Source of the DNA: a virus
Lineage: Duplodnaviria; Heunggongvirae; Uroviricota; Caudoviricetes
DNA: 46,276 nt
IMG/VR virus record: IMGVR_UViG_2623620505_000005
Strand: one strand, 5' to 3'
Shown here one piece after another: positions 1,777-44,219 of the stretch (positions are counted from its first letter, which is position 1; each line of letters begins with the position of its first letter). The position numbers and the translations under genes are program-made. Under the pieces are notes generated by a model. The model did no database searches. It was not told the DNA's origin and was given only the letters and a program-made list of their open reading frames with translations.

Positions 1777-3372
1777 TTATGGCTGAGACTCTGGTTTAGC
1801 AATCTCGTTTATAAATTTCTTAGCTACAACAGTCTCATACTTTCTATAATCATCAAGATATTGAACATCTATATGATTTTTGTAGCGAGCATTAAATTTA
1901 TTTGCAGCCCCTGTTTTATCATCTTTACGTTCATCCGTTGGTCTGAAAAATTTATGGTAGCGGCGGGGTGATACCCCCTCAAAATCACAAAATATTACTT
2001 TGGAAGATTCTTCGTTCTTTGTTATTGCATCATTATGCAGATCAAGAGCAAGGCTTTTATCAAATGGCTCTATATATACTACTTTTTTTATTCCAGATGC
2101 GACAATATGCCTTGCACAGTTGTGGCAGGGATAGGTTGTCGTAAAAAGAATTTTATCTTTAGTATCGCCGTTTTGTTTTCTAGCCATTGATGTAATGACG
2201 TCCATTTCAGCATGAATTGATCTGGAGTACTCCATTACACTTGATATTTTGCTGTCTTTGTAAATGCCTTCTGCAATATTATCTAATTTGTTTAGAAGTC
2301 GTGTTATATTAATATCGGCAACAGTTTGTCCTGCGGAAATACCTAATACACTTCTTACTTCGGTTGATAATATGCTTTTTATACGGTCTTTAATTTTTAG
2401 CTTGTTTGCATCATTATAACACTTACCACTTTTGTGAACGCATCGATGATCGTTATCAAAATCATCACTGCTATACAACCCGCCACCAGCTTTAGGTACG
2501 TCGTTCTTACCCACGGCAAGCAAATTCCCTTCATCATCAAACAGTGCAGCCCCTACTTGACGTGATAAACAAGCTGATTGTAATGATGTTGAAAAGGCAG
2601 CATACATACCTTTCTCGTTAAAAGTTGGTGTTAAACCATTTTTGCCATGAATAAGACCGAAAAACCGATCAATCTTCTTCTTTAATTCACTTTTTTGGCT
2701 GAAGTTATTTTTAATAAAAAAATCTGAATCAAGAATGGTTTCCCCGGTTCTTTGTCCATACGGATCAGAGGATTTATTATCAATATTGATAATTAAATGA
2801 AGGTCGTCCTTTGCCGATTCGTCAGCAATGAGATTCGGAATTCGGTAATCTAAATCGCGCAAAACTCCTAACAAATAGAAATTATGCTGATATATAACTC
2901 TGAATAACTCTATTTCTTCCGGCCTTTTGAATTGATCAATGATGAAGACAGTACCTTTATATTCATCATTATTATAATCAATATTCTTTTTCGCTGCTGC
3001 GATTGCTGCAATAGCAGCTTCTGCAAGCAACTCATTTTTTTCGTAATGTTTACGAAGTTTATTGGCAATATCCTGGAGTTTTAAATGTCTATTAACTTGT
3101 GTGCTTTCGGATACCTTCAGTGCTGCGGGCTCAAAATATAATGGGTCTTCCATAAGCGCACTTATGCGGATGTGTACAACATTATACCCCCATTCTTTGG
3201 ATATCTCTTCGATAATTTTGTTTATCGTTCTCATGCCACATCCAACATATCCACACAATCCAAGATAAATATCTTTTGATTGTCGTGAATTCACAATCTC
3301 AAGTGATGATGCCGATGTTGAGCCTTTTTTTTCATTCAGCTTTTGTGGAGTTTTTTTTGCTGCTTCAGCCAT
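1777..3372 (-). CDS. avcD: P-loop NTPase / deoxycytidylate-deaminase fusion protein, AvcD/DCD-like anti-phage dCTP deaminase
   Basis: 531 aa. C-terminal half has the zinc-deaminase signature (SACLSRQVGAAL ... HAEMDVI ... PCHNCARHIVASGIKKVVY); N-terminus has a glycine-rich P-loop-like segment (GLCGYVGCGMRT). Size and architecture match the AvcD/DCD family; AT-rich relative to the phage backbone. Confidence 0.7.
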   Translation of the reverse strand: MAEAAKKTPQKLNEKKGSTSASSLEIVNSRQSKDIYLGLCGYVGCGMRTINKIIEEISKEWGYNVVHIRISALMEDPLYFEPAALKVSESTQVNRHLKLQDIANKLRKHYEKNELLAEAAIAAIAAAKKNIDYNNDEYKGTVFIIDQFKRPEEIELFRVIYQHNFYLLGVLRDLDYRIPNLIADESAKDDLHLIINIDNKSSDPYGQRTGETILDSDFFIKNNFSQKSELKKKIDRFFGLIHGKNGLTPTFNEKGMYAAFSTSLQSACLSRQVGAALFDDEGNLLAVGKNDVPKAGGGLYSSDDFDNDHRCVHKSGKCYNDANKLKIKDRIKSILSTEVRSVLGISAGQTVADINITRLLNKLDNIAEGIYKDSKISSVMEYSRSIHAEMDVITSMARKQNGDTKDKILFTTTYPCHNCARHIVASGIKKVVYIEPFDKSLALDLHNDAITKNEESSKVIFCDFEGVSPRRYHKFFRPTDERKDDKTGAANKFNARYKNHIDVQYLDDYRKYETVVAKKFINEIAKPESQP

Positions 3373-3382
3373 TGCTAATTAC

Positions 3383-3568
3383 CTAGTCGAAAACTATATC
3401 AGTATTTATTATTTCAAAAAATGCATCAAGAATTTCTTTATTTTTCTTTTTACTTTCAAATGAAATGACATTATCTTGATTAAATGTTGTTAATTCAATG
3501 CAGATAGAATCAACCTGATCATTGGCGGCGATGCTCGATTCTATTTCATTAAATGCTATTACATTCAT
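3383..3568 (-). CDS. Small ORF (61 aa) co-oriented immediately upstream of the avcD-like gene; may be non-coding and mark an AvcI-like antitoxin sRNA locus
   Basis: ORF ends 10 bp before the avcD-like start codon; no recognisable domain. AvcD systems are known to carry their sRNA antitoxin directly 5' of avcD. Confidence 0.25.
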   Translation of the reverse strand: MNVIAFNEIESSIAANDQVDSICIELTTFNQDNVISFESKKKNKEILDAFFEIINTDIVFD

Positions 3569-4727: not shown

Positions 4728-5089
4728 TATGCTCCAGCCTCCGGCGCTTTGGGTATTACTGCCCAGTGAGTGATATTGAAGTTTTCAAGGTCCCCGACCT
4801 GAAATGTCCACTGCCATTCTCCGGTTTCTTTTTGTCCCCAGGTGTACCAGAGAGAACGCCAGCCAATCAGCCAGCCTTCTCCATTAGCATCAAATAACAG
4901 AACACTTTCATTTGCTGGTGGCAGTTCAGCTGACACTGGTATTATTTTGTTTTCCAGTGCCGCACATTTAGCTTCAAGCGCGTCGAATTTACGTACCAGG
5001 TACTCAGCATTTGTTTCGTTCACTTTCAGATCTCGCGGTACACATTTCCCGCGAAGAAACCCTTCCATTTCGAAAATATTCATGCGCAT
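4727..5089 (-). CDS. DUF551-like phage protein (YfdS-like)
   Basis: 120 aa; C-terminal THWAVIPKAPE resembles the DUF551 tail; start overlaps the upstream gene's stop. Confidence 0.55.
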   Translation of the reverse strand: MRMNIFEMEGFLRGKCVPRDLKVNETNAEYLVRKFDALEAKCAALENKIIPVSAELPPANESVLLFDANGEGWLIGWRSLWYTWGQKETGEWQWTFQVGDLENFNITHWAVIPKAPEAGA

Positions 5090-5616
5090 TTGCGTAACTC
5101 CGATAAATCGTTAAAACGTTCCATAAACATCCCGTAGGCATGACCCGGTGCCAGTGGAATCACGTTGAACATCTCTGTTGCCCGGATGCCTTCCAGTACA
5201 GGCCAGAAAGAGCCATCATCAAGCCCGAGATCGCGGCGTTCGGTTGCCAGCATGATGAGATCGGCATATTTCACGGGCGTACTCATAACTGGGGGTAACC
5301 CGTATTTCTCACGGATTACGGCGTCTATTTTTTCTTCCATCCGTTTATAGTCAGGAAGAAGTCGTTTCAGTGGTGCGGGGATGTCCTGGCAATATGCTTC
5401 TGTTGCATCATGCATTAACGCTTCAAAAGCAAATTCCTGCGGTACCAGCTGGCTGCAAAGCACCGCATGTTGGGCGACGCTGTAGAAGTGTGAAAGATGC
5501 CCTGCAAAGCGACAGATATTTGAAAGGGAAACCGCGATATCGTTAATAACGATGTCGTCTTTATTTATCTTGTCATAATAAAAATGCTTCCCGGAAAAAG
5601 TTTTAATAAATGACAT
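5080..5616 (-). CDS. HD-domain phosphohydrolase (YfdR-like 5'-deoxynucleotidase)
   Basis: HD motif in LMHDATEAYCQDIP. Start chosen at the ATG at 5614-5616 (MSFIKTF), which has a GGAGA Shine-Dalgarno 7 nt upstream; gives 178 aa. The track ORF extends further to 5679. Confidence 0.7.
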   Translation of the reverse strand: MSFIKTFSGKHFYYDKINKDDIVINDIAVSLSNICRFAGHLSHFYSVAQHAVLCSQLVPQEFAFEALMHDATEAYCQDIPAPLKRLLPDYKRMEEKIDAVIREKYGLPPVMSTPVKYADLIMLATERRDLGLDDGSFWPVLEGIRATEMFNVIPLAPGHAYGMFMERFNDLSELRKCA

Positions 5617-5744: not shown

Positions 5745-6569
5745 TCAGGCGGTGAAAGTACCAATAAAGGTTTCTACTTTGCTGTCTTTGAATTTCTCAA
5801 CAAGCAGATCACGAAATTCGTTAGCCATTTCTTCCTGCACCGCTTCCAGCTGAATAATGCGCAGAACCAGTACAGGACGATCGCCAGTGATAATGCTGAG
5901 ACGTAATTTAAACGGACGTTCTTTCAAGCTTTCAAACGGAACGCATTTAAATTCAAATGCCACTGGCATAATGTCTTTGGTCTTCGCTTCGACAGACTCC
6001 ATCAGGGAGCGTTTGCCGCTGAAGTCATTATCTTCAAAATCAGCGGTTTGGTTCGCTTCAATTGTGATTTTACGGATCGCCGCAGCCGCTTTGGTTGCCT
6101 GAATGGTGTCACCATTAGCATCAAAGCCCACAAGGTAGTCGGCCCAGTCTTCAATCCATTCTGCCAGTGACTTCTGGGAGTTACGCTCGCCATTAACAGA
6201 CAACAGAGCAGAGAACGGTGCTGTCTTTTTCAGTTTGAGAGTGGCAGTGTTATCTGCGTGACCTGGCTCATCAATAGTACCCAGGTTAAGCACACTGACG
6301 GCACGCATATTATCGGCATCGATAAAGCAGCGGGTGCCTTCATCTGCAAGATCTTTAGAATAACGGGTAAAGTCATCGATGCTGGCAGTGGAAAGCGCAC
6401 CACGGAAACGGAAACGATTTAAATTAAATTTTTCCAGATCATGAATGCGGAAATTCTCAGGCAATGCCACAGCATCGGCACCAATCTTACTGATGATTTC
6501 ATTAACACCCTGAGCAGAAATAAGGGCATGGATTTGATTAATTGCGGTTGCGTCTAAGTTATGAGACAT
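5745..6569 (-). CDS. YfdQ-like (DUF2303) phage protein
   Basis: 274 aa; length and position (next to an HD hydrolase and a 120-aa protein) match my recollection of the yfdP-yfdQ-yfdR-yfdS block of the E. coli CPS-53 prophage. Confidence 0.55.
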
Positions 6570-6634: not shown

Positions 6635-6997
6635 TTAACGACCTGCTGCGCGGAGTTTTCCGTCAGGTTCACCGGCAAGAGTCAGTAATTGTCCCTGGTC
6701 TTCCTGCAGAATAGTCAGGCGACCACCGCGATTGACATACATCGGCGTTTCGGTGGTGTCTTCTTCGGAAATTTTCCCGCGGTTAGTCGGGCGAACATAT
6801 GAGAGTTTGTGTTTGATTTTCACACGGTTCTCATCAAATGGTTCGATTTCCAGGTTGAGTGAGACCTTACCTTTGGTTTTCGTGTTCATCACACCGGAAG
6901 CGACTTCACTGAGAACTGCGCCGATTTTTGTTTCAAATACGCCGCCGTCCAGCTCCCCGATAAATGCCTGCACATCAGTACTGCGTTCGCTAGCCAT
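6635..6997 (-). CDS. Hypothetical early-left protein (YfdP-like); first gene of the leftward early operon
   Basis: Start set at the ATG at 6995-6997 (MASERS...), preceded by GAGGAG with a 7-nt spacer; 120 aa. The track ORF begins 62 codons further upstream with no ribosome-binding site. Confidence 0.5.
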   Translation of the reverse strand: MASERSTDVQAFIGELDGGVFETKIGAVLSEVASGVMNTKTKGKVSLNLEIEPFDENRVKIKHKLSYVRPTNRGKISEEDTTETPMYVNRGGRLTILQEDQGQLLTLAGEPDGKLRAAGR

Positions 6998-9314: not shown

Positions 9315-10462
9315 ACAGTTTAACGGCAAATAACCGTTTGTCGCAACAGCTGGTGGTCAGTGTCGCTGAACACCGGTTGTTATGGCATGAATGCAGATTA
9401 CCAAATCACCTGGCTGTAAGTAACCACAGAGAACTTTACCTGACTGTGGGGGGCGAGTTGTGCAGGAACTTAACCGCTGGTTTCGTGACGGAAGAGGACT
9501 TTATGTTCATGTTATTCGTTGGGAGCCAGAAACACAGCGCGTTATCTATCTTCGCAAAGACTACCCGCATGAGTGCTTTAGTCCTTTGTGGAAATTCAGG
9601 CGTGATTTTGTTGAGTGTGAAGGACCACCAGCACATTGATTCTGCCATTCCGGGACGTTACACTGTTCAGGCACCTTATAAAACGGGTGCCGGGCGTGGA
9701 AACCCGGAATTCACCAAAGCGCACAACCGCGCTCTTGCGGTTTTTTTGTGTCATGAGCAGCATTACGCCCAAATTATGGTGGGGCGTGCAGGGCCAACTT
9801 CGGTTGGGCCGGGTTCTTTGGTGACCGGTATTTCCACCCCTGTACGTCTCACCACCAATAAGGTCGTGGAAAGCCTTGGTGGTGAGTTATTAAAAATCAC
9901 CAAAGAGGCTGCCATCATGGCTACGATCCCAACCCTCACTCAACCTGAAATTGCCATCGTTGATGGTCAGGCTGTTACTTCATCCTTGGCTGTTGCCAAC
10001 TTCTTCTCCAAACGTCATGACGATGTACTGAAAAAGATCCGCACGCTTGAATGCTCAGCATCATTCACTGCCCGCAATTTTTCGGTGAGTGATTACACTG
10101 ATTGCACAGGTCGCAAACTTCCTTGCTACCAAATCACACGCGACGGTTTTGCGTTTCTTGCTATGGGTTTCACGGGTAAACGTGCTGCCCAGTTCAAGGA
10201 GGCATACATCAATGCCTTTAACCAGATGGAGAAACAGCTTTCAAAGCCCTCTGTACCGAGCGACGTTGCACATAACGCCAGCGTTCTCTGTTCCTACATT
10301 TCATCAATTCATCAGGTCTGGCTGCAGCAGCTTTATCCTATGTTGGCAAAAGCCGAATCTCCGCTGGCTGTTAGCTTGTATGACTATATTAATGATGCTT
10401 CGGCACTGGCCTGCCTCATAAATTTGTCGCTGAACCCTTCAGAGGTATGGGGGCGCAAATGA
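9311..10462 (+). CDS. Rha-family phage regulatory protein with a long N-terminal extension
   Basis: The C-terminal 181 aa (from the ATG at 9917, which has an AAGAGG ribosome-binding site) resemble Rha regulatory proteins; the upstream 202 codons are in frame with no stop and no recognised domain. Confidence 0.55.
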   Translation: MNSLTANNRLSQQLVVSVAEHRLLWHECRLPNHLAVSNHRELYLTVGGELCRNLTAGFVTEEDFMFMLFVGSQKHSALSIFAKTTRMSALVLCGNSGVILLSVKDHQHIDSAIPGRYTVQAPYKTGAGRGNPEFTKAHNRALAVFLCHEQHYAQIMVGRAGPTSVGPGSLVTGISTPVRLTTNKVVESLGGELLKITKEAAIMATIPTLTQPEIAIVDGQAVTSSLAVANFFSKRHDDVLKKIRTLECSASFTARNFSVSDYTDCTGRKLPCYQITRDGFAFLAMGFTGKRAAQFKEAYINAFNQMEKQLSKPSVPSDVAHNASVLCSYISSIHQVWLQQLYPMLAKAESPLAVSLYDYINDASALACLINLSLNPSEVWGRK

Positions 10463-10679
10463 TCCGGAATATTTTCAAACGGTTTACCAATCAGACTTTC
10501 CGTTGTCCTCGCCCCGGTCAGTGGTACACCACGCCTGCAGGGCATGTTCTACGTGTCAGCCTGGTTGACCGTGAATGTCAGAAGGTGATTTGTGAACCGC
10601 TGGGCCGTAATTATCGCGTCAGTATGCCGCTTATAGCCTTTCGCTCCGGAAAAAACATGAAGCATCTCGGAGGTGCAGC

Positions 10680-11486
10680 ATGAGTATGGAGCTGATGGTT
10701 AAAGCGATGAAAATTCGAGTGGGAAATCCATTGCGAAAACTGGTTCTGATTAAGCTGGCTGATAATGCCAGCGATCAGGGGGAGTGCTGGCCCAGCTACC
10801 AGCATATTGCTGACCAGTGCGAGATTAGCAAACGTTCTGTGATGAATCATATTGCGGCCCTTTGTGAGTCCGGGCTGGTAAAAAAAGTCACCCGGAAAGG
10901 TGAAAAAGGTAACTCAAGTAATATCTATCTCCTTCATCTGGATGGTGCAGGAGATTCACTAGGGGGTAGTGCAAATAATTCACTATCTGGTGCAGCAAAT
11001 TCACCAGGTAGTGCAGGAGTTGCACCAGGGGGTAGTGCAGGAGATTCACCCAGAACCAGTCACTCTTTTGAACCAGTCAAAGAACCAATAGCTGTTGGTG
11101 CATCAGTTGATGAGTCCGTGCGAGTTCGTTCAAACCGACCGGAATACTCTCCGGAGTTTGAGCAGGCATGGCTGGCATATCCCAAACGTGCTGGTGGCAA
11201 TTCAAAATCTGCAGCCTTCAAAGCCTGGAAAGCCCGTTTGAATGAGGGAGTAAACCCCGAAACCATGCTGGAAGGTGTGAAACGCTACGCGGGCTGGGTA
11301 TCTGCGATGGGTAACAGCGGCACACAATTTGTGAAACAGGCTGTCACGTTCTTTGGTCCGGATCGTCATTTCGAAGAATTCTGGGAAGTTCCTGCGGTAT
11401 CTGCAGCCAGACGCGAGGACCCGTACTTCAAAGCCAGTTACGACAACGTGGACTACAGCCAGATCCCGGCAGGATTCAGGGGGTGA
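10680..11486 (+). CDS. Replication initiator (lambda O-like: N-terminal HTH, internal iteron-encoded linker)
   Basis: 268 aa; N-terminal winged-helix-like segment; a Gly/Ser/Ala-rich linker is encoded by a tandem iteron array, as ori-lambda sits inside O. Confidence 0.6.
   Translation: MSMELMVKAMKIRVGNPLRKLVLIKLADNASDQGECWPSYQHIADQCEISKRSVMNHIAALCESGLVKKVTRKGEKGNSSNIYLLHLDGAGDSLGGSANNSLSGAANSPGSAGVAPGGSAGDSPRTSHSFEPVKEPIAVGASVDESVRVRSNRPEYSPEFEQAWLAYPKRAGGNSKSAAFKAWKARLNEGVNPETMLEGVKRYAGWVSAMGNSGTQFVKQAVTFFGPDRHFEEFWEVPAVSAARREDPYFKASYDNVDYSQIPAGFRG
10944..11050. repeat. Iteron array (five ~22-bp direct repeats) inside the O-like gene; candidate phage origin
   Basis: Repeats begin at 10944, 10967, 10989, 11009 and 11033; consensus about (G/T)RGTGCARNARNTTCAC(C/T); the first and last are identical over GTGCAGGAGATTCAC. 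Confidence 0.5.
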
Positions 11487-11977
11487 TCATGAGTCTTTTG
11501 AATGAAGTTCAGAAATTCATTGAAGCCCATCCGGGGTGTACTTCCGGAGACATTGCGGATGCTTTTGCAGGTTACTCACGGCAGCGCGTTCTGCAGTCAG
11601 CAAGCAAGTTACGTCAGAGTGGGCGTGTGGCTCACCGTTGTGAAGGAGATACACGCAGACATTTCCCACGCCTGACTGAGAGAGCGCAGGAGCCGGAACC
11701 ACAACCAGTTCGTGAAACCAGACCTGTGCGCAATTTCTATGTCGGCACTAACGATCCCCGGGTGATTTTGTGCCTGACCCGCCAGGCGGAAGAACTGGAG
11801 TCTAGGGGCTTATACCGTCGTGCTGCAACGGTGTGGATGGCGGCATTCCGTGAAAGCCACTCCCAGCCAGAACGAAACAATTTTCTGGCGCGTCGTGAGC
11901 GGTGCTTACGGAAAAGCAGCAAGCGCGCTGCATCAGGTGAAGAGTGGTATCTGTCAGGGAATTACGTGGGGGCTTAA
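11483..11977 (+). CDS. Hypothetical protein; possibly a PerC/ANR-like small regulator (weak)
   Basis: 164 aa; segment EELESRGLYRRAATVWMAAF is reminiscent of PerC-family proteins. This is a weak recollection, not verified. Confidence 0.45.
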   Translation: MIMSLLNEVQKFIEAHPGCTSGDIADAFAGYSRQRVLQSASKLRQSGRVAHRCEGDTRRHFPRLTERAQEPEPQPVRETRPVRNFYVGTNDPRVILCLTRQAEELESRGLYRRAATVWMAAFRESHSQPERNNFLARRERCLRKSSKRAASGEEWYLSGNYVGA

Positions 11978-12630
11978 TGAGTAATAAATATTGCCAGGCG
12001 CTGGTGGAGCTGCGGAACAAACCAGCCCATGAACTGAAGGAAGTGGGCGATCAGTGGCGCACGCCGGATAACATTTTCTGGGGAATTAACACCCTGTTTG
12101 GCCCGTTTGTTCTGGATCTGTTCACTGACGGTGATAACGCCAAATGTGCCGCGTATTACACGGCGGAAGACAACGCGCTGGCGCATGACTGGTCAGAACG
12201 TCTTGCGGAGCTTAAAGGTGCTGCCTTTGGTAATCCCCCATACAGCCGCGCCAGTCAGCATGAGGGGCAATACATCACCGGCATGCGTTACATCATGAAG
12301 CATGCCAGTGCCATGCGTGATAAAGGCGGGCGCTATGTTTTCCTGATCAAAGCTGCCACCAGCGAAGTGTGGTGGCCGGAAGACGCAGACCATATTGCTT
12401 TTATTCGCGGGCGTATTGGTTTTGAACTTCCTGCCTGGTTTATCCCGAAGGATGAGAAGCAGGTGCCGACAGGCGCTTTCTTCGCTGGTGCTATTGCTGT
12501 TTTCGACAAGACCTGGAAGGGACCGACAATCAGCTACATCGGGCGCGATGAACTTGAGGCATGTGGTGAGGCGTTTCTGGCGCAGGTTCGCCAGCAGGCA
12601 GAAAAACTTGTCAGGGAGATGGCGGCATGA
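11977..12630 (+). CDS. Phage Dam-like N6-adenine DNA methyltransferase
   Basis: NPPY catalytic motif (FGNPPYSRAS). Start at the ATG at 11977, overlapping the upstream stop (TAATG) with a G-rich ribosome-binding site; the track ORF starts at a GTG 33 nt earlier. Confidence 0.8.
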   Translation: MSNKYCQALVELRNKPAHELKEVGDQWRTPDNIFWGINTLFGPFVLDLFTDGDNAKCAAYYTAEDNALAHDWSERLAELKGAAFGNPPYSRASQHEGQYITGMRYIMKHASAMRDKGGRYVFLIKAATSEVWWPEDADHIAFIRGRIGFELPAWFIPKDEKQVPTGAFFAGAIAVFDKTWKGPTISYIGRDELEACGEAFLAQVRQQAEKLVREMAA

Positions 12631-16538: not shown

Positions 16539-17591
16539 ATGAAAAATACTGTAAAAATAAACAGTGTTGATTTAATCAACGCTGATTGCCTGCATTTTAT
16601 TCAGTCCCTGCCTGATGATTCCATTGACCTGATTGTTACCGATCCGCCGTACTTCAAGGTGAAACCCAACGGCTGGGACAATCAGTGGAAAGGGGACGAA
16701 GATTACCTTAAGTGGCTGGACCACTGTCTGGCCCAGTTCTGGCGGGTGTTAAAACCTGCCGGAAGCCTTTACCTGTTCTGTGGGCATCGCCTGGCATCTG
16801 ATATTGAGATCATGATGCGTGAACGTTTCAACGTGCTTAACCATATCATCTGGGCGAAGCCGTCCGGACGTTGGAATGGGTGTAATAAAGAAAGTCTGCG
16901 CGCATATTTTCCTGCCACAGAGCGCGTTCTGTTTGCTGAACATTACCAGGGGCCATATCGCGGCAAAAGTGACGGCTATGCGGAAAAAGAAAGGGAACTC
17001 AAACAGCGCATAATGGCACCGCTGATATCGTATTTCAGGGATGCTCGTGCCGAACTGGGTATAACGGCAAAACAGATTGCCGAAGCCACAGGTAAGAAAA
17101 ATATGGTTTCCCACTGGTTTGGTGCCAGTCAGTGGCAGTTGCCGAATGAGGCTGACTATCGGAAGTTACAGGCACTGTTTTCCCGTATAGCGGCAGAGAA
17201 GTTTCAGGAACAACAACTGGAACAACCACACCACCAGCTGGTGGCATCTTATGATTCACTGAATCGCAAATATTCTGAATTGCTGGATGAGTTTAAATCT
17301 CTCCGGCGCTATTTCTCCGTATCAGTCTCCGTGCCTTATACCGATGTCTGGATGCATAAACCCGTTCAGTTCTACCCGGGTAAACATCCGTGTGAGAAAC
17401 CGGCGGATATGCTCAGGCAAATAATCAATGCCAGTAGTCGACCAGGTGATCTGGTTGCTGATTTTTTTATGGGATCCGGTTCCACAATAAAAGCAGCAAT
17501 GGCGTTGGGGCGTCGGGCCTTAGGTGTTGAGCTTGAGTCAGAGCGGTTTAACCAGACAGTGAAAGAGATAAACGAGCTGGTGGGGAAATAA
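16539..17591 (+). CDS. DNA methyltransferase (beta-class N6-adenine/N4-cytosine), orphan
   Basis: 350 aa; DPPY motif near the N-terminus (LIVTDPPYF) and a SAM-binding FxGxG motif at the C-terminus (DFFMGSGST); no adjacent restriction endonuclease gene. Confidence 0.85.
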
Positions 17592-19226: not shown

Positions 19227-19847
19227 ATGAAAGATCAAGATGTTAGGTTCGCGGTGCATCATAAGCTTTTGAAAGAATCGCATTTAGATCCTGACTGCCT
19301 TGTGGTCGATGAATTTTCCATATCCCTTGGCGCCAGTAGAGCAGACATTGCTGTAATAAATGGTGTTATACACGGGTACGAGCTCAAAAGTGAATATGAC
19401 TCTTTGGAGCGTTTGCCTCTTCAAATCAAGCATTATTCTTCTGTAATGGACAAGGTTACTCTTGTCGTAGCTGAGAAACATCTTGAGGGAGCATTAAAGT
19501 TAATCCCAGGTTGGTGGGGCGTTAAAACGGTTTCTGTTGGGCCAAAAGGCGCCATTCTTATAAAGCACATGCGTGGAGAAAAGCTTAATCGAAACCATAA
19601 CTCATTGATGCTCGCTCAATTGCTTTGGAAAGATGAATGTATCGACGTACTTGAACGATGGGGCTATTCCAAAGGAATCAAAAGCAAGCCCCGATTTGAG
19701 TTATGGAATATTATTGCGGAAAATATTCCAATAGCGAATCTCAGGCTTGAAGTCAGAACAGCCTTAAAGAAACGCGTAGGCTGGAAAGTTAAGGCTTGGC
19801 AGGCTGAGTCTGCGCCAACCAATAAAGCTGTCTCACGACTAACGTAA
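19227..19847 (+). CDS. PD-(D/E)xK nuclease-like protein (possibly sce7726-family)
   Basis: 206 aa; N-terminal residues in the order expected for a restriction-endonuclease-like core (E in VVDEF, D in RADIAV, E-x-K in YELK); AT-rich; 3' end overlaps the convergent neighbour by 59 bp. Confidence 0.55.
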   Translation: MKDQDVRFAVHHKLLKESHLDPDCLVVDEFSISLGASRADIAVINGVIHGYELKSEYDSLERLPLQIKHYSSVMDKVTLVVAEKHLEGALKLIPGWWGVKTVSVGPKGAILIKHMRGEKLNRNHNSLMLAQLLWKDECIDVLERWGYSKGIKSKPRFELWNIIAENIPIANLRLEVRTALKKRVGWKVKAWQAESAPTNKAVSRLT

Positions 19848-20856
19848 TATGGTGCGTATGTGCAACTTTACGCCATTCTTTAGAGCCGCCAGATTTGTTA
19901 GCGCCTAATGATCTTTGGTAAATGTAATCATCCCCCCAACTAAATTTGGAGCCAAAGACTTGATACTCTGGCGAACTAACAAGGGTAGTACATAAGTTTT
20001 TAGTTTGGCCCCATCCATTTCCTTTAACTGCGGTACCTTTTACAAAGATCCATGAGGTATCGTTCGAATATCTCACTGAGACATACTGAGACATGAAGCG
20101 TGGGTCTACGCTCGTAATGGTAGAGCTAGCGGTGGGATAATCACTAAAACTTGGCGTTCTTCCATTGCTAAAATTCTGTACTACATACATCCAAAGATCG
20201 TATTCATGGCGCGGAATATGATGAACTTGATGTTGCGGTATCCCTGCCTGTGATGCAGGGTATGCGGTTGAAGATAAAATCAAGTTTCTCCACGGAGCTT
20301 GGCCTGATAATGTGTTGACCATGCTTAATGCTTGTTGTTTTAAACTATCAGTTGCGTTTTGAATATCTCCAAAATCAATGATTACATCAATTAAACTAGG
20401 ATGAATATTTAAGTGGTTAACCAGACTTGTGAATTGGTGCCATGTCTGGGGGGTGATAGATATAGCGAGCCCATTGATTAAGTTGCGTTGAACAGCATGT
20501 ATATAGTTTGTTGAATATGCGGGAGAGACAACAGGGATAATTTCCTTACCATTTACTCTAGCATCTTGGATACACATATCTAGAGGATGATGGCGGCTCG
20601 AACCATGTTTATCTAAATATTTAACATCCAGCAAAACAGGACGATTGGCTTTCCAGGATGCCGCAAGATTAATACCGAAGTCAGATAAGTAAGAACTCAA
20701 ACTCTTCTTGTAGCATTCGTTTTCATAATCCCAGTCTATGTCTGGAATGGTAATGATCGGAGTAAAACCAGAGAGCGTAGTTTGATCTAAAAGCATCAGA
20801 GATTCATATTCAGCAGGCTTCCATTTCAGCTGTGGGTAATATTGATGTTGACTCAT
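19789..20856 (-). CDS. P4 beta-family protein (Beta_protein / possibly sce7725-family)
   Basis: 355 aa; N-terminus YYPQLKWKPAEYESL resembles the start of the phage P4 beta-protein family as I recall it; strong AAGGAG Shine-Dalgarno; convergent with and overlapping the PD-(D/E)xK-like gene. Confidence 0.55.
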   Translation of the reverse strand: MSQHQYYPQLKWKPAEYESLMLLDQTTLSGFTPIITIPDIDWDYENECYKKSLSSYLSDFGINLAASWKANRPVLLDVKYLDKHGSSRHHPLDMCIQDARVNGKEIIPVVSPAYSTNYIHAVQRNLINGLAISITPQTWHQFTSLVNHLNIHPSLIDVIIDFGDIQNATDSLKQQALSMVNTLSGQAPWRNLILSSTAYPASQAGIPQHQVHHIPRHEYDLWMYVVQNFSNGRTPSFSDYPTASSTITSVDPRFMSQYVSVRYSNDTSWIFVKGTAVKGNGWGQTKNLCTTLVSSPEYQVFGSKFSWGDDYIYQRSLGANKSGGSKEWRKVAHTHHITLVVRQLYWLAQTQPAKP

Positions 20857-40861: not shown

Positions 40862-40888
40862 AGCCCGCCGGTTCAGGCGGGCTTTTTT
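40862..40888 (+). terminator. Rho-independent terminator after lom
   Basis: AGCCCGCC-GGTTCA-GGCGGGCT stem-loop followed by TTTTT. Confidence 0.6.
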
Positions 40889-40899
40889 GTGGGGTGAAT

Positions 40900-43197
40900 A
40901 TGGCAGTAAAGATTTCAGGTGTACTGAAAGACGGCACAGGAAAACCGGTACAGAACTGCACAATCCAGCTGAAAGCAAAACGTAACAGTACCACGGTGGT
41001 GGTGAACACGCTGGCCTCAGAAAATCCGGATGAAGCCGGGCGTTACAGCATGGACGTTGAGTACGGTCAGTACAGCGTTATTCTGTTGGTGGAAGGATTC
41101 CCGCCGTCACATGCCGGGACCATCACCGTGTATGAAGATTCCCGACCCGGTACGCTGAATGATTTTCTCGGTGCCATGACGGAGGATGATGTCCGTCCGG
41201 AGGCACTGCGCCGTTTTGAACTGATGGTGGAAGAGGTGGCGCGTAACGCGTCCGCGGTGGCACAGAACACGGCAGCCGCGAAGAAGTCAGCCGGCGATGC
41301 CAGCACATCAGCCCGTGAGGCGGCAACCCATGCGACTGATGCTGCAGACTCAGCACGCGCAGCCAGCACGTCAGCCGGGCAGGCCGCGTCGTCGGCACAG
41401 GAAGCGTCTTCCGGTGCAGAAACGGCATCAGTAAAGGCCACTGAGGCATCAAAAAGTGCAGCCGCTGCAGAGTCCTCGAAAAGCGCGGCGGCCACCAGTG
41501 CTGTTGCCGCGAAAACGTCAGAAACGAATGCGGCAGCGTCACAACAATCAGCCGCCACCTCAGCATCCACCGCGACCGCGAAAGCGTCAGAAGCTGCCAC
41601 CTCAGCCCGTGAGGCGGAGGCCTCAAAAGAGGCAGCAAAATCATCAGAAACGAACGCATCATCAAGCGCCAGTGGTGCAGCCTCCTCGGCAACGGCGGCA
41701 GAAAATGCCGCGAAGGAGGCAAAAACATCCGAGATGAACGCCAGGTCTTCTGAAACGGCAGCAGCACAGAGCGCATCCGCTGCGGCGGGCTCTGAAAAAG
41801 CAGCTGCATCATTGGCCGGCGAGGCATCCGGTAAGGCGGAAGAGGCTGCAGGGAGCGCAGCGGTGGCAGCGCAGAGCAAAAGTTCTGCTGAGTCTGCAGC
41901 AACACGTGCAGAGAATGCGGCCAGACGGGCAGAGGAGATTGCATCTGCTGTGAGCCTGGAGGATGCCAGTACGACCACAAAGGGGGTTGTCAGGCTCAGT
42001 AACCGTACTGACAGTACTTCACAGACAGAGGCCGCCACATCCCTGGCAGTCAGTAACGTCATGAATGAGGTGAAGACAAAAGCGTCACTGGATAGTCCGG
42101 TCTTCACCGGTACCCCTATGACACCGACACCACCGGACGATGCTTCAGGTCTGGAAACAGTGAATGCGGCGTTTGTCCGCAAACTGCTTGCTGCTCTTGT
42201 GGGTTCATCTCCTGAAACCCTGGACACGCTGAACGAACTGGCGGAGGCGCTGGGTAATGACCCGGCGTTTTCCGTAACGATAATGAAGATGCTGGCCGGA
42301 AAACAGCCTTTAAATCCCGTTCTGACTGCGTTAGGCAGTCTTCCATCCGGTGAAGATGGGTTTCCCAGTTTTAGCGGTAACGGGCAGTGTTCTCTGGCTC
42401 CTGTTTCTGAAAAAGGGAAACAGCTGTTGTCACAATCCACAGCCGAAGAGATGTGTGACGTTCTGGGTATCAATGGAAATAGTGGAAACTCAGCAGCAGG
42501 CGGAAATTATGGGCTTCAGTCAGGCATTTATGACAGAACGCAGGGGCGGGCCGCTGTTGCAGGAAGTCTGGGATTCGGGCATATCTTCACAAAAGGTGAC
42601 GTTCTCAGCTTTTCGTCGAAGGAAGTGCTTCTTGACTGGATCTCAAATGCCACACCGGGGCGGTATACGGTCAGCGCTGACTGCGAAATTATACCGGAAG
42701 TACAGTTTACAGGTGTGATTGATTTATTTTTCGCTGATGAGATGCGGAATAACCTTACTGTCCCGCTGATGCTGAAGATGGCTGTTTTTTACGGGATGAA
42801 CGGTGAACTGTATCGGGCAACATACGATGCCATACATGGCCCTTCACTGAGTGAATGGGTGAAAATAAATATTGACCTGTATGATATTGCCAAAATCCTG
42901 AGCATGACCACAAACGATAATTATGGTGATCCGTATGCTGGAAGCATAACACTGGCAGCCTTTAATAGCCGTGGCAGCACTAAAACAGCTAGCGTCGTAC
43001 GAGGGCAATATTACCCGGGCTCCGTCCTTACTCCCGTGGTATTCAGTGTTCCGGAGGGGGCATTATCGTCGCCGAAGATTGGGCTTTCTGGTACAGAGAA
43101 GCACACATTGCCGGGTGTTTACCGTGCATTATCCGGAACCCCGGATTACACCGGAGAAGGTGAGTTTATTATTGCTGCTTTTATAAGGACGATGTGA
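40900..43197 (+). CDS. stf: Side tail fibre protein Stf (lambda-type N-terminus, different C-terminal receptor-binding region)
   Basis: Start at the ATG at 40900 (MAVKISGVLKDG, as in lambda Stf); central Ala/Ser-rich tract; the C-terminal ~300 aa do not match lambda Stf as I recall it. Confidence 0.8.
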   Translation: MAVKISGVLKDGTGKPVQNCTIQLKAKRNSTTVVVNTLASENPDEAGRYSMDVEYGQYSVILLVEGFPPSHAGTITVYEDSRPGTLNDFLGAMTEDDVRPEALRRFELMVEEVARNASAVAQNTAAAKKSAGDASTSAREAATHATDAADSARAASTSAGQAASSAQEASSGAETASVKATEASKSAAAAESSKSAAATSAVAAKTSETNAAASQQSAATSASTATAKASEAATSAREAEASKEAAKSSETNASSSASGAASSATAAENAAKEAKTSEMNARSSETAAAQSASAAAGSEKAAASLAGEASGKAEEAAGSAAVAAQSKSSAESAATRAENAARRAEEIASAVSLEDASTTTKGVVRLSNRTDSTSQTEAATSLAVSNVMNEVKTKASLDSPVFTGTPMTPTPPDDASGLETVNAAFVRKLLAALVGSSPETLDTLNELAEALGNDPAFSVTIMKMLAGKQPLNPVLTALGSLPSGEDGFPSFSGNGQCSLAPVSEKGKQLLSQSTAEEMCDVLGINGNSGNSAAGGNYGLQSGIYDRTQGRAAVAGSLGFGHIFTKGDVLSFSSKEVLLDWISNATPGRYTVSADCEIIPEVQFTGVIDLFFADEMRNNLTVPLMLKMAVFYGMNGELYRATYDAIHGPSLSEWVKINIDLYDIAKILSMTTNDNYGDPYAGSITLAAFNSRGSTKTASVVRGQYYPGSVLTPVVFSVPEGALSSPKIGLSGTEKHTLPGVYRALSGTPDYTGEGEFIIAAFIRTM

Positions 43198-43763: not shown

Positions 43764-43856
43764 GAAAAAACGTAGTACATCGTATTCAAGAGGATCTATG
43801 CTGGCATCGTAGCTGTTTTTAAACAGTAAGTAGCCGTTGAAGGTCACAGGGGAAAA

Positions 43857-44219
43857 ATGCTCTTTGACTTGGCTTCCGGGGACGCACTATTTATCTCTGA
43901 ACCAGGCCCATTAGCGGAAAATGTCACCTGGTTGTCGCCGGAAGGGGAATATCAGAAGTGGAACGGTACAGCCTGGGTGAAAGATGCAGAAGCAGAAAAA
44001 CTATTCCGGATCCGGGAGGCGGAAGAAACAAAAAACAGCCTGATGCAGGTAGCCAGTGAGCATATAGCGCCGCTTCAGGATGCTGTAGATCTGGAGATCG
44101 CAACGGAGGAAGAAAATTCGTTGCTGGAAGCCTGGAAAAAGTATCGGGTGTTGCTGAACCGTGTTGATACATCAACTGCACCTGATATTGAGTGGCCGGA
44201 AGAACCAGACACAATGTAA
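43857..44219 (+). CDS. tfa: Tail fibre assembly protein Tfa, lambda-type, N-terminally truncated remnant
   Basis: 120 aa corresponding to roughly residues 75-194 of lambda Tfa (GDALFISE ... [20 protein letters not shown]); the N-terminal ~74 residues are missing. Confidence 0.6.

Follow-up and report, generated by a model that had tools for sequence, protein, structure and literature searches.

A candidate replication origin made of five iterons and a conserved 36-bp element inside the initiator gene of a lambdoid Escherichia coli prophage

The window analyzed here, meaning the whole stretch of 46,276 nucleotides, is a lambdoid prophage of E. coli ARS-C101 (NZ_CP132979.1, 565298-611573, 100% identical). 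Its replication initiator gene contains five repeats that are very probably, as far as can be judged from sequence comparisons, the sites where the gene's own protein starts the copying of the phage. Our main reading, to which we give a probability of about 0.8, is that these iterons bind dimers of the N-terminal domain of the initiator and that, together with a conserved 36-bp element, they form the origin of the prophage inside the linker-coding part of the initiator gene. We regard this candidate as a new case of an origin within an initiator gene, of the kind described for lambda, P22 and phi80, in which the element and the loader-less arrangement stand out.

Results

The replication module is widespread among E. 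coli prophages and Stx phages

Starting from the cI-like repressor gene (- strand), the gene order in the window is cro-like, CII (CP76), Rha/Ash, a 74-aa ORF of phrog_1153, the initiator and then a PerC-family regulator (Table 1), past which come genes for a Dam methylase, a LexA-like protein, RusA, KilA-N, DUF968 and Q. The mEp460 gp43 'replication protein' gene and the initiator gene share 97-98% DNA identity (97.8% for the module), and Stx2c, Stx2a and Stx2k phages bear the replication module at 97-98% identity. When complete E. coli genomes were considered, the 1.6-kb region was matched in 2727 of 5426. The 74-aa phrog_1153 ORF travels with the initiator in mEp460, SfV-type and PhiR63_1 phages.

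Table 1. Positions of the features of the replication module in the window
Feature	Position	Strand	Basis or remark
74-aa ORF, phrog_1153	10459-10683	+	E 1.6e-45; ATGA overlaps with the Rha stop and with the initiator start
Replication initiator gene, 268 aa	10680..11486	+	ORF, PGAP CDS, HTH_36, PHROG 270
N-terminal winged-helix DNA-binding domain (aa 1-88)	10680..10943	+
Recognition helix (about aa 51-64, ISKRSVMNHIAALC) and wing (aa 67-85)	within 10680..10943	+
Left flank of low duplex stability	10899..10940	.	33% GC; encodes the wing peptide KGNSSNIYLLHL
Iteron 1, GTGCAGGAGATTCAC	10945..10959	+
Iteron 2, GTGCAAATAATTCAC	10969..10983	+
Iteron 3, GTGCAGCAAATTCAC	10990..11004	+
Iteron 4, GTGCAGGAGTTGCAC	11011..11025	+	arms form a perfect dyad
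Iteron 5, GTGCAGGAGATTCAC	11035..11049	+	same as iteron 1
36-bp element, AGAACCAGTCACTCTTTTGAACCAGTCAAAGAACCA, candidate origin core	11052..11087	+	single-codon use, GC3, stability, IMG/VR
C-terminal helical domain (aa 154-240), presumed helicase/loader contact	11139..11399	+
PerC-family regulator, 164 aa	11483..11977		PF06069 E 7.8e-9; phrog_1324 'transcriptional activator' E 8e-79; PGAP agrees

Several other genes of the prophage can be recorded here. Two DNA methyltransferases are present, a Dam-like N6-adenine enzyme (11977-12630, +) and a 'DNA-methyltransferase' (16539-17591, +), and what PGAP annotates as an 'anti-phage dCTP deaminase' (1777-3372, -) adjoins the integrase; this defence gene is part of the cargo of the prophage. 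A 'sce7726 family' gene (19227-19847, +) and a 'beta family protein' gene (19789-20856, -) stand in convergent orientation between lysis cassette and terminase, and this pair resembles a moron or a defence insertion. For the tail fibre and its assembly, the annotation shows partial pseudogenes (40871-42022 and 43807-44190), because of which infectious particles may not come from the ARS-C101 prophage even with a working origin.

The initiator has an O-like design and lies outside the lambda O family

The protein encoded by the initiator gene is a 'replication protein' of the SfV/mEp460/ST64B type and a relative of yfdO. It matches Pfam HTH_36 at aa 17-67 (E 1.7e-11, 44.1 bits for a cut-off of 25) and PHROG 270 'replication initiation protein' over aa 3-267 (E 3.3e-88), while distinct PHROG families match its N-half (aa 1-145) and its C-half (aa 140-268). 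AlphaFold2 predicts a winged helix at aa 1-88 (pLDDT about 90), disorder at aa 91-153 (pLDDT 24-34) and a helical domain at aa 154-240 (pLDDT above 90). The Pfam match to DnaD_N is sub-threshold, all DnaD-type scores being below the family thresholds, and a PDB sequence search returned no solved relative of the initiator.

A preliminary description of this DNA had called the gene O-like and had proposed that it follows the logic of ori-lambda. The layout agrees with that proposal, but protein homology does not: Pfam gave no match of the initiator to the lambda O family (Phage_rep_O, PF04492), the best BLASTP alignment reached E 0.019 over 22 aa and hhalign probabilities were 2.6% and 7.2%. We therefore assign the protein, from these profile and alignment searches, to the HTH_36/PHROG 270 initiators, with an O-like design outside the O family.

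Five dyad-symmetric iterons lie in the linker-coding part of the initiator gene

The pattern GTGCANNNNNTKCAC is found on the + strand at 10945, 10969, 10990, 11011 and 11035 and also on the - strand at the palindromic 11011, with zero further matches elsewhere in the 46,276 bases. These 6 matches compare with 0.45 expected by chance, and 6 were reached in 0 of 100 dinucleotide shuffles. The five copies form an array (10945-11049) with spacings of 24, 21, 21 and 24 bp (mean 22.5), so that the pattern scan bears out the five direct repeats of about 22 bp with a shared core that had been described from the sequence, and all five copies do lie in the ORF of the 268-aa initiator (10680..11486). Each iteron is an imperfect dyad GTGMA-N5-TKCAC; within the array, the dyad GTGMA/TKCAC is constant, while the 5 bp in its center and the residues that are encoded vary. 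The Gly/Ser/Ala-rich linker that the repeats had been said to encode corresponds to aa 89-124 (GAGDSLGGSANNSLSGAANSPGSAGVAPGGSAGDSP) and is predicted by AlphaFold2 to be disordered.

Copy number varies among 98-100% identical E. coli alleles (P0001-P0043), which carry 1, 2, 4, 5, 6, 7, 8 or 9 iterons. Five copies are by far the commonest state (64 of the 71 IMG/VR loci, the loci L015-L094 being near-identical copies that are informative on copy number). The proteins encoded by these alleles measure 242-302 aa, and each allele has 2 to 5 of the GAACCAGTCA / 'EPV[KN]' units that make up the 36-bp element described below. The E. coli alleles with 1-2 repeats weigh against the iteron reading, unless a small number of sites is enough for function or the origin is defective in many prophages. 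The 2-iteron allele P0029, found on 64 contigs, may mark origin-defective prophages, comparable to the in-frame ori- deletions of lambda. Two other loci, L110 of Pseudomonas bharatica and L137 of Erwinia tracheiphila, have an initiator that is frameshifted within the iteron array (positions 3001-3400): their ORFs stop after 118-133 aa, and the iterons and the GAACCAGTCA element are intact as DNA.

Iteron sequence covaries with the recognition helix of the initiator

Our comparison set consisted of 13-14 phage loci found by tblastn and of 80 genome loci from a collection with one genome per species, the latter from Enterobacterales, Pseudomonas, Shewanella, Aeromonas, Marinomonas, Vibrionaceae and others. 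About 190 gammaproteobacterial relatives carry 3-7 dyad-symmetric repeats at the same spot, with a period of 21-24 bp. In every intact homologue among the phage and genome loci, the array comes directly after the wing and its last spacing is nearly always 24.

The class of the iterons covaries with the recognition helix, with at least seven classes. The helix S[KR]RSV[MI]NH is paired with GTGMA-N5-TKCAC, the helices SKRSVMRH and DKRTAMRH with GTGAC-N5-GTCAC, the helix DRSTVRKH with GTAGGC-type sites, the helix CSKSAVRxH with GCCA-N5-TGGC and the helix [SG]RSTVKxH with GGGGCAGGAGCTGCCCC. A single N-to-R change in 'MNH' tracks the change from GTGCA to GTGAC. The encoded peptides are wholly unlike between types (GAGDSL vs PVPPEST), whereas dyad symmetry, phasing and position are kept. 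We read this combination of dyad symmetry, phasing and covariation as the mark of sites that are bound by a winged-helix dimer and not of a peptide repeat. Constraint from the protein on the repeat region is weak, since the segment that it encodes is predicted to be disordered.

A 36-bp element next to the array appears to be conserved as DNA

The most conserved part of the locus is a 36-bp element that was absent from the preliminary description. It starts 2-3 bp 3' of the last iteron and contains GAACCAGTCA units at 11053 and 11070 (17 bp apart) and a partial third unit at 11082; within the window, such units occur only in this element. Whatever the iteron class, the type of C-domain or the type of loader, the element is found in 75 of 85 divergent loci.

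Codon use in the element is strikingly uniform. Over 68 dereplicated sequences, its codons 1-7, 10 and 11 are invariant (AGA, ACC, AGT, CAC, TCT, TTT, GAA, AAT and GAA) and its codons 8-9 are CCA and GTC in 93-97%; invariant residues of the N-domain, by contrast, use 2-6 codons each. The majority base at third positions accounts for 0.89 in the element compared with 0.54 in the N-domain. In high-GC hosts, GC3 is 0.30 in the element compared with 0.74 in the N-domain and 0.78 downstream, and the element of low-GC hosts has about the same GC3 (0.27) as that of high-GC hosts. The substitutions that do occur in the element are single transitions that change residues radically (F/S/L/P, P/S and T/I). 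The distance between the units is 15 bp in Shewanella variants, which puts the first unit in another reading frame (PEPVTLEPV), there are three units at 12-13 bp in Aliivibrio, and both units of locus L151 are altered in concert to GAATCTATCA. None of the loci without a DNA match to the element encodes its peptide by other codons, and the uniform codon use is therefore no artefact of selecting loci by their DNA match.

We also scanned IMG/VR with an exact degenerate pattern for the element and found that 110 of the 112 evaluable matches stand behind the same N-domain family, the remaining 2 being likely regex misses. Altogether, these comparisons argue that the 36-bp element is conserved at the DNA level, and it is probably the core of the origin, in the form of an unwinding, helicase-entry or factor-binding site. 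Natural recombinants (P0067 and P0072) swap N-domains exactly at the element.

An RNA or hairpin element was considered and rejected, as single-strand folding of 10935-11095 is no better than that of shuffles (z -1.06); the Rfam search gave only a chance match to mir-875 (22 bits for a gathering score of 84). The distant HTH_36 initiators of phiP27 (L013, 2234-2500) and of Vibrio phage 252E42.2 (L010, 2760-2900) have their own iterons and no GAACCAGTCA element. By eye, a short repeat apparently follows the iterons in both, KHDPQ twice in the peptide of phiP27 and CCTAACA twice in the DNA of 252E42.2, which hints at a general two-part origin layout.

Duplex stability has local minima on both sides of the array

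The least stable 30-mers of the region 10300-11700 are in the left flank of the array (dG -32.5 vs a window mean of -41.4, with a 99th percentile of -31.7). Relatives also have a stability minimum at -150..-130 from the element, where the DNA sequence is unconserved. The element itself is a local stability minimum (z +1.0 to +1.2 across all loci, rising to +1.7 at most in those of high GC); in the window, where it has 42% GC, it is only mildly unstable (about 1 sd below average). Minima are then found on both sides of the array and neither is a classical AT-rich tract. As for other origin signals, the DnaA box TTWTNCACA gave two 1-mismatch matches only in 10000-12000, neither of them beside the array, and the strict DnaA box gave none in the same region at up to 2 mismatches. 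Neither an IHF consensus nor a GATC cluster was found near the array. The modest instability of the element and the lack of these signals count against an origin at this place.

The host DnaB-DnaC complex is the probable client of the initiator

Neither the PGAP annotation of the prophage nor the complete genome record of the free phage mEp460 includes a helicase, a loader or a primase, an arrangement that we call 'initiator-solo', so that the lack of a loader gene, which had been remarked on for the vicinity of the initiator, extends to the whole prophage as annotated by PGAP. The 164-aa product encoded just downstream had been put forward as a possible loader, a suggestion that we abandon: it is a PerC-type transcription activator instead and matches only PerC and PHROG 1324.

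Relatives of this initiator have different neighbors. In the 76 relatives with a scannable downstream ORF, it encodes a DnaC/IstB-like ATPase in 27 and a lambda-P-like protein in 19, and these genes confirm that the context is a replication module; the lambda-P neighbors are confined to other members of the N-domain family. An uncharacterised phrog_6028 protein is encoded downstream in a Pseudomonas group of 20, and other relatives have a primase-helicase (S135, Stx2a_F451 and Min27). Using phmmer with the C-domain alone, we found that DnaC-like and DnaB genes come after a C-domain of the window type in Aeromonas phage AsXd-1, in phiP27 and in Rahnella prophages; the AsXd-1 initiator is 67% identical to the window initiator over its full length. 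The simplest inference is that the C-domain contacts a complex of the DnaC/DnaB type, which in the solo phages would be the host's own. Given that there is no phage loader and that this C-domain has DnaC-like and DnaB genes as neighbors in relatives, the initiator probably recruits the DnaB-DnaC complex of the host; this role of the C-domain, to which no fold could be assigned, is deduced from gene neighborhood alone.

The early-left operon of the prophage has homologues of the CPS-53 yfdQ/yfdR cluster, namely yfdR (5080-5616, -), a YfdQ family gene (5745-6569, -) and yfdP (6635-6997, -). K-12 YfdR was shown to bind DnaA and to weaken DnaA-DnaB and DnaA-DiaA contacts (PMC4776307), and we speculate that the YfdR homologue could free host helicase for the phage.

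Discussion

The closest parallel to the arrangement described here is ori-lambda, where four dyad iterons are found inside O at 20-24 bp spacing with an A-rich tract to their right. Common to both are repeats inside the initiator gene that are about two helical turns apart and downstream of the region for the DNA-binding domain, a segment of lower stability to the right of the repeats (only a mild local minimum here), the position of the gene in the rightward early operon, a type-specific N-terminal domain and a C-terminal domain that contacts the loading machinery (as is presumed here). Unlike lambda, the window has no P gene and no O homology. Its iterons are 15-19 bp GTGMA-N5-TKCAC sites whereas those of lambda are the 18-bp ATCCCTCAAAACGAGGGA, and the segment to their right is a sequence-conserved GAACCAGTCA element of 42% GC where lambda has a 40-bp AT-rich tract.

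Relatives that do bear a loader or a helicase are AsXd-1, phiP27, Salmonella phage S135, Stx2a_F451/Min27 and Pseudomonas, Shewanella and Rahnella prophages. They share the N-domain family, the iteron position and the phasing of the window and, save for phiP27, also the element, while AsXd-1, phiP27 and Rahnella additionally share the C-domain. Beside their initiator, AsXd-1 and phiP27 have a DnaC/IstB-like ATPase and DnaB, whereas the window has a PerC-type regulator and no loader.

Replisome organizers such as DnaD and SPP1 G38P belong to Firmicutes, whereas the hosts of the window's relatives are Gammaproteobacteria, which are not known to have the DnaD/DnaB(Bsu)/DnaI pathway. Iteron plasmids (pSC101 RepA, R6K pi, RK2 TrfA and pPS10 RepA) use one winged-helix Rep, a direct-repeat array and the host DnaB-DnaC. 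Their origins are outside the rep gene and include DnaA boxes and AT-rich 13-mers, and the same sites are also used for copy-number control. In the window, by contrast, the sites are inside coding sequence and no DnaA box accompanies them; Pfam and PDB sequence searches detected no Rep WH1/WH2 homology of the initiator. Single-Rep iteron plasmids have been reviewed (PMC4980987).

Eru6/Eru7-type 'non-lambdoid' Stx phage regions have the same order after cI, namely cro, cII-like, Rha/Ash and an HTH_36 protein. The Eru classification is by gene content only and leaves iterons and origin unmentioned (Llarena 2021, PMC8044961; 2022 follow-up, PMC8951638), and its authors wrote that nothing is known on the replication proteins of such phages (PMC8951638). 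The searchable literature on SfV, ST64B, mEp460, yfdO and Eru phages returned no iterons or origin, which may differ for subscription journals or for Weigel and Seitz 2006, and the literal strings of the element or of the peptide returned nothing relevant in the searchable literature.

Two alternative explanations concern the repeats themselves. They might be the mere DNA footprint of a low-complexity Gly/Ser/Ala linker that was expanded by slippage and that has no function as DNA sites. The segment does encode a disordered linker, and a copy number of 1 to 9 among near-identical E. coli alleles is what slippage predicts, but the dyad GTGMA/TKCAC is conserved within and between arrays when the peptide is not, lineages with different peptides keep 15-19-bp dyads, a 21-24 bp period and a fixed distance to the element, and the repeat sequence co-varies with the recognition helix, as would not be expected for a neutral linker. 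We consider this explanation highly improbable. It is also improbable that the repeats serve as operators or titration sites (for autoregulation, exclusion or incompatibility) with the true origin elsewhere: sites located at least 265 bp into a coding region are not at a promoter, the protein family is annotated as replication initiator, the C-domain is common to proteins that precede DnaC/DnaB or lambda-P genes, and the prophage annotation shows no further repeat cluster or replication gene. These points outweigh, in our view, the fact that HTH_36 is a generic DNA-binding domain, that the sites of iteron plasmids double as copy-number control and that no canonical AT-rich tract or DnaA box adjoins the array.

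The 36-bp stretch raises a separate question, which is whether it belongs to the origin at all. It could instead encode a short linear peptide motif (RTSHSFEPVKEP) for a conserved host protein, considering that EPV is kept in all variants, or it could be a crossover patch for module exchange, considering that natural recombinants (P0067 and P0072) switch N-domain exactly there and that the C-domain and the loader type vary behind a constant element. Against these possibilities, the element uses single codons where invariant N-domain residues use 2-6, its GC3 is 0.30 where that of flanking codons is 0.74-0.78, and the single transitions that are observed change residues radically. The first unit of Shewanella is in the other frame and the units of L151 changed in concert, and second-order selection for crossovers is unlikely to fix 36 bp across phages of Pseudomonas, Vibrio, Shewanella and E. 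coli. A role of the stretch outside the origin thus appears unlikely to us.

Returning to the reading in which iterons and element together form the origin, initiation could proceed as follows. Once repression is lifted, the initiator would be made from the rightward early transcript (cro, cII-like, rha, small orf and initiator), as the gene order suggests. N-domains would then fill the five sites, about two helical turns apart, and would oligomerize into an O-some-like nucleoprotein complex, which we infer from the phasing, the dyad symmetry and the co-variation between sites and recognition helix. This complex would destabilize an adjacent weaker segment, with the conserved element as the most likely candidate, since its place 3' of the iterons corresponds to the AT-rich side of ori-lambda. 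Finally, the C-terminal helical domain would bring the replicative helicase, with the host DnaB-DnaC as its probable client.

A more tentative proposal, which we hold to be possible but rather doubtful, is that the GAACCAGTCA element is a sequence-specific core common to a whole family of gammaproteobacterial phage origins with differing iterons, where it would mark helicase entry. It would be recognised either by the N-terminal 48 residues of the initiator, which are nearly invariant, or by a replisome protein of the host that is universally conserved. Recognition by the first 48 residues might perhaps take place on ssDNA after melting, by analogy with Rep-DUE or DnaA-trio contacts.

The module is very common in E. 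coli and it is present in Stx phages, whose replication controls toxin dose. A concrete candidate origin, a predicted binding code between helix and half-site and a candidate entry element make it a directly testable system. The 36-bp element also offers a clear case from nature of selection acting on DNA within coding sequence, and it could reveal how a phage initiator recruits the host helicase without a loader of its own. If it is indeed a core that marks helicase entry, 'initiator-solo' phages would capture the host DnaB-DnaC without any phage loader, and the early-left YfdR homologue may help them by blocking DnaA-DnaB contacts at oriC.
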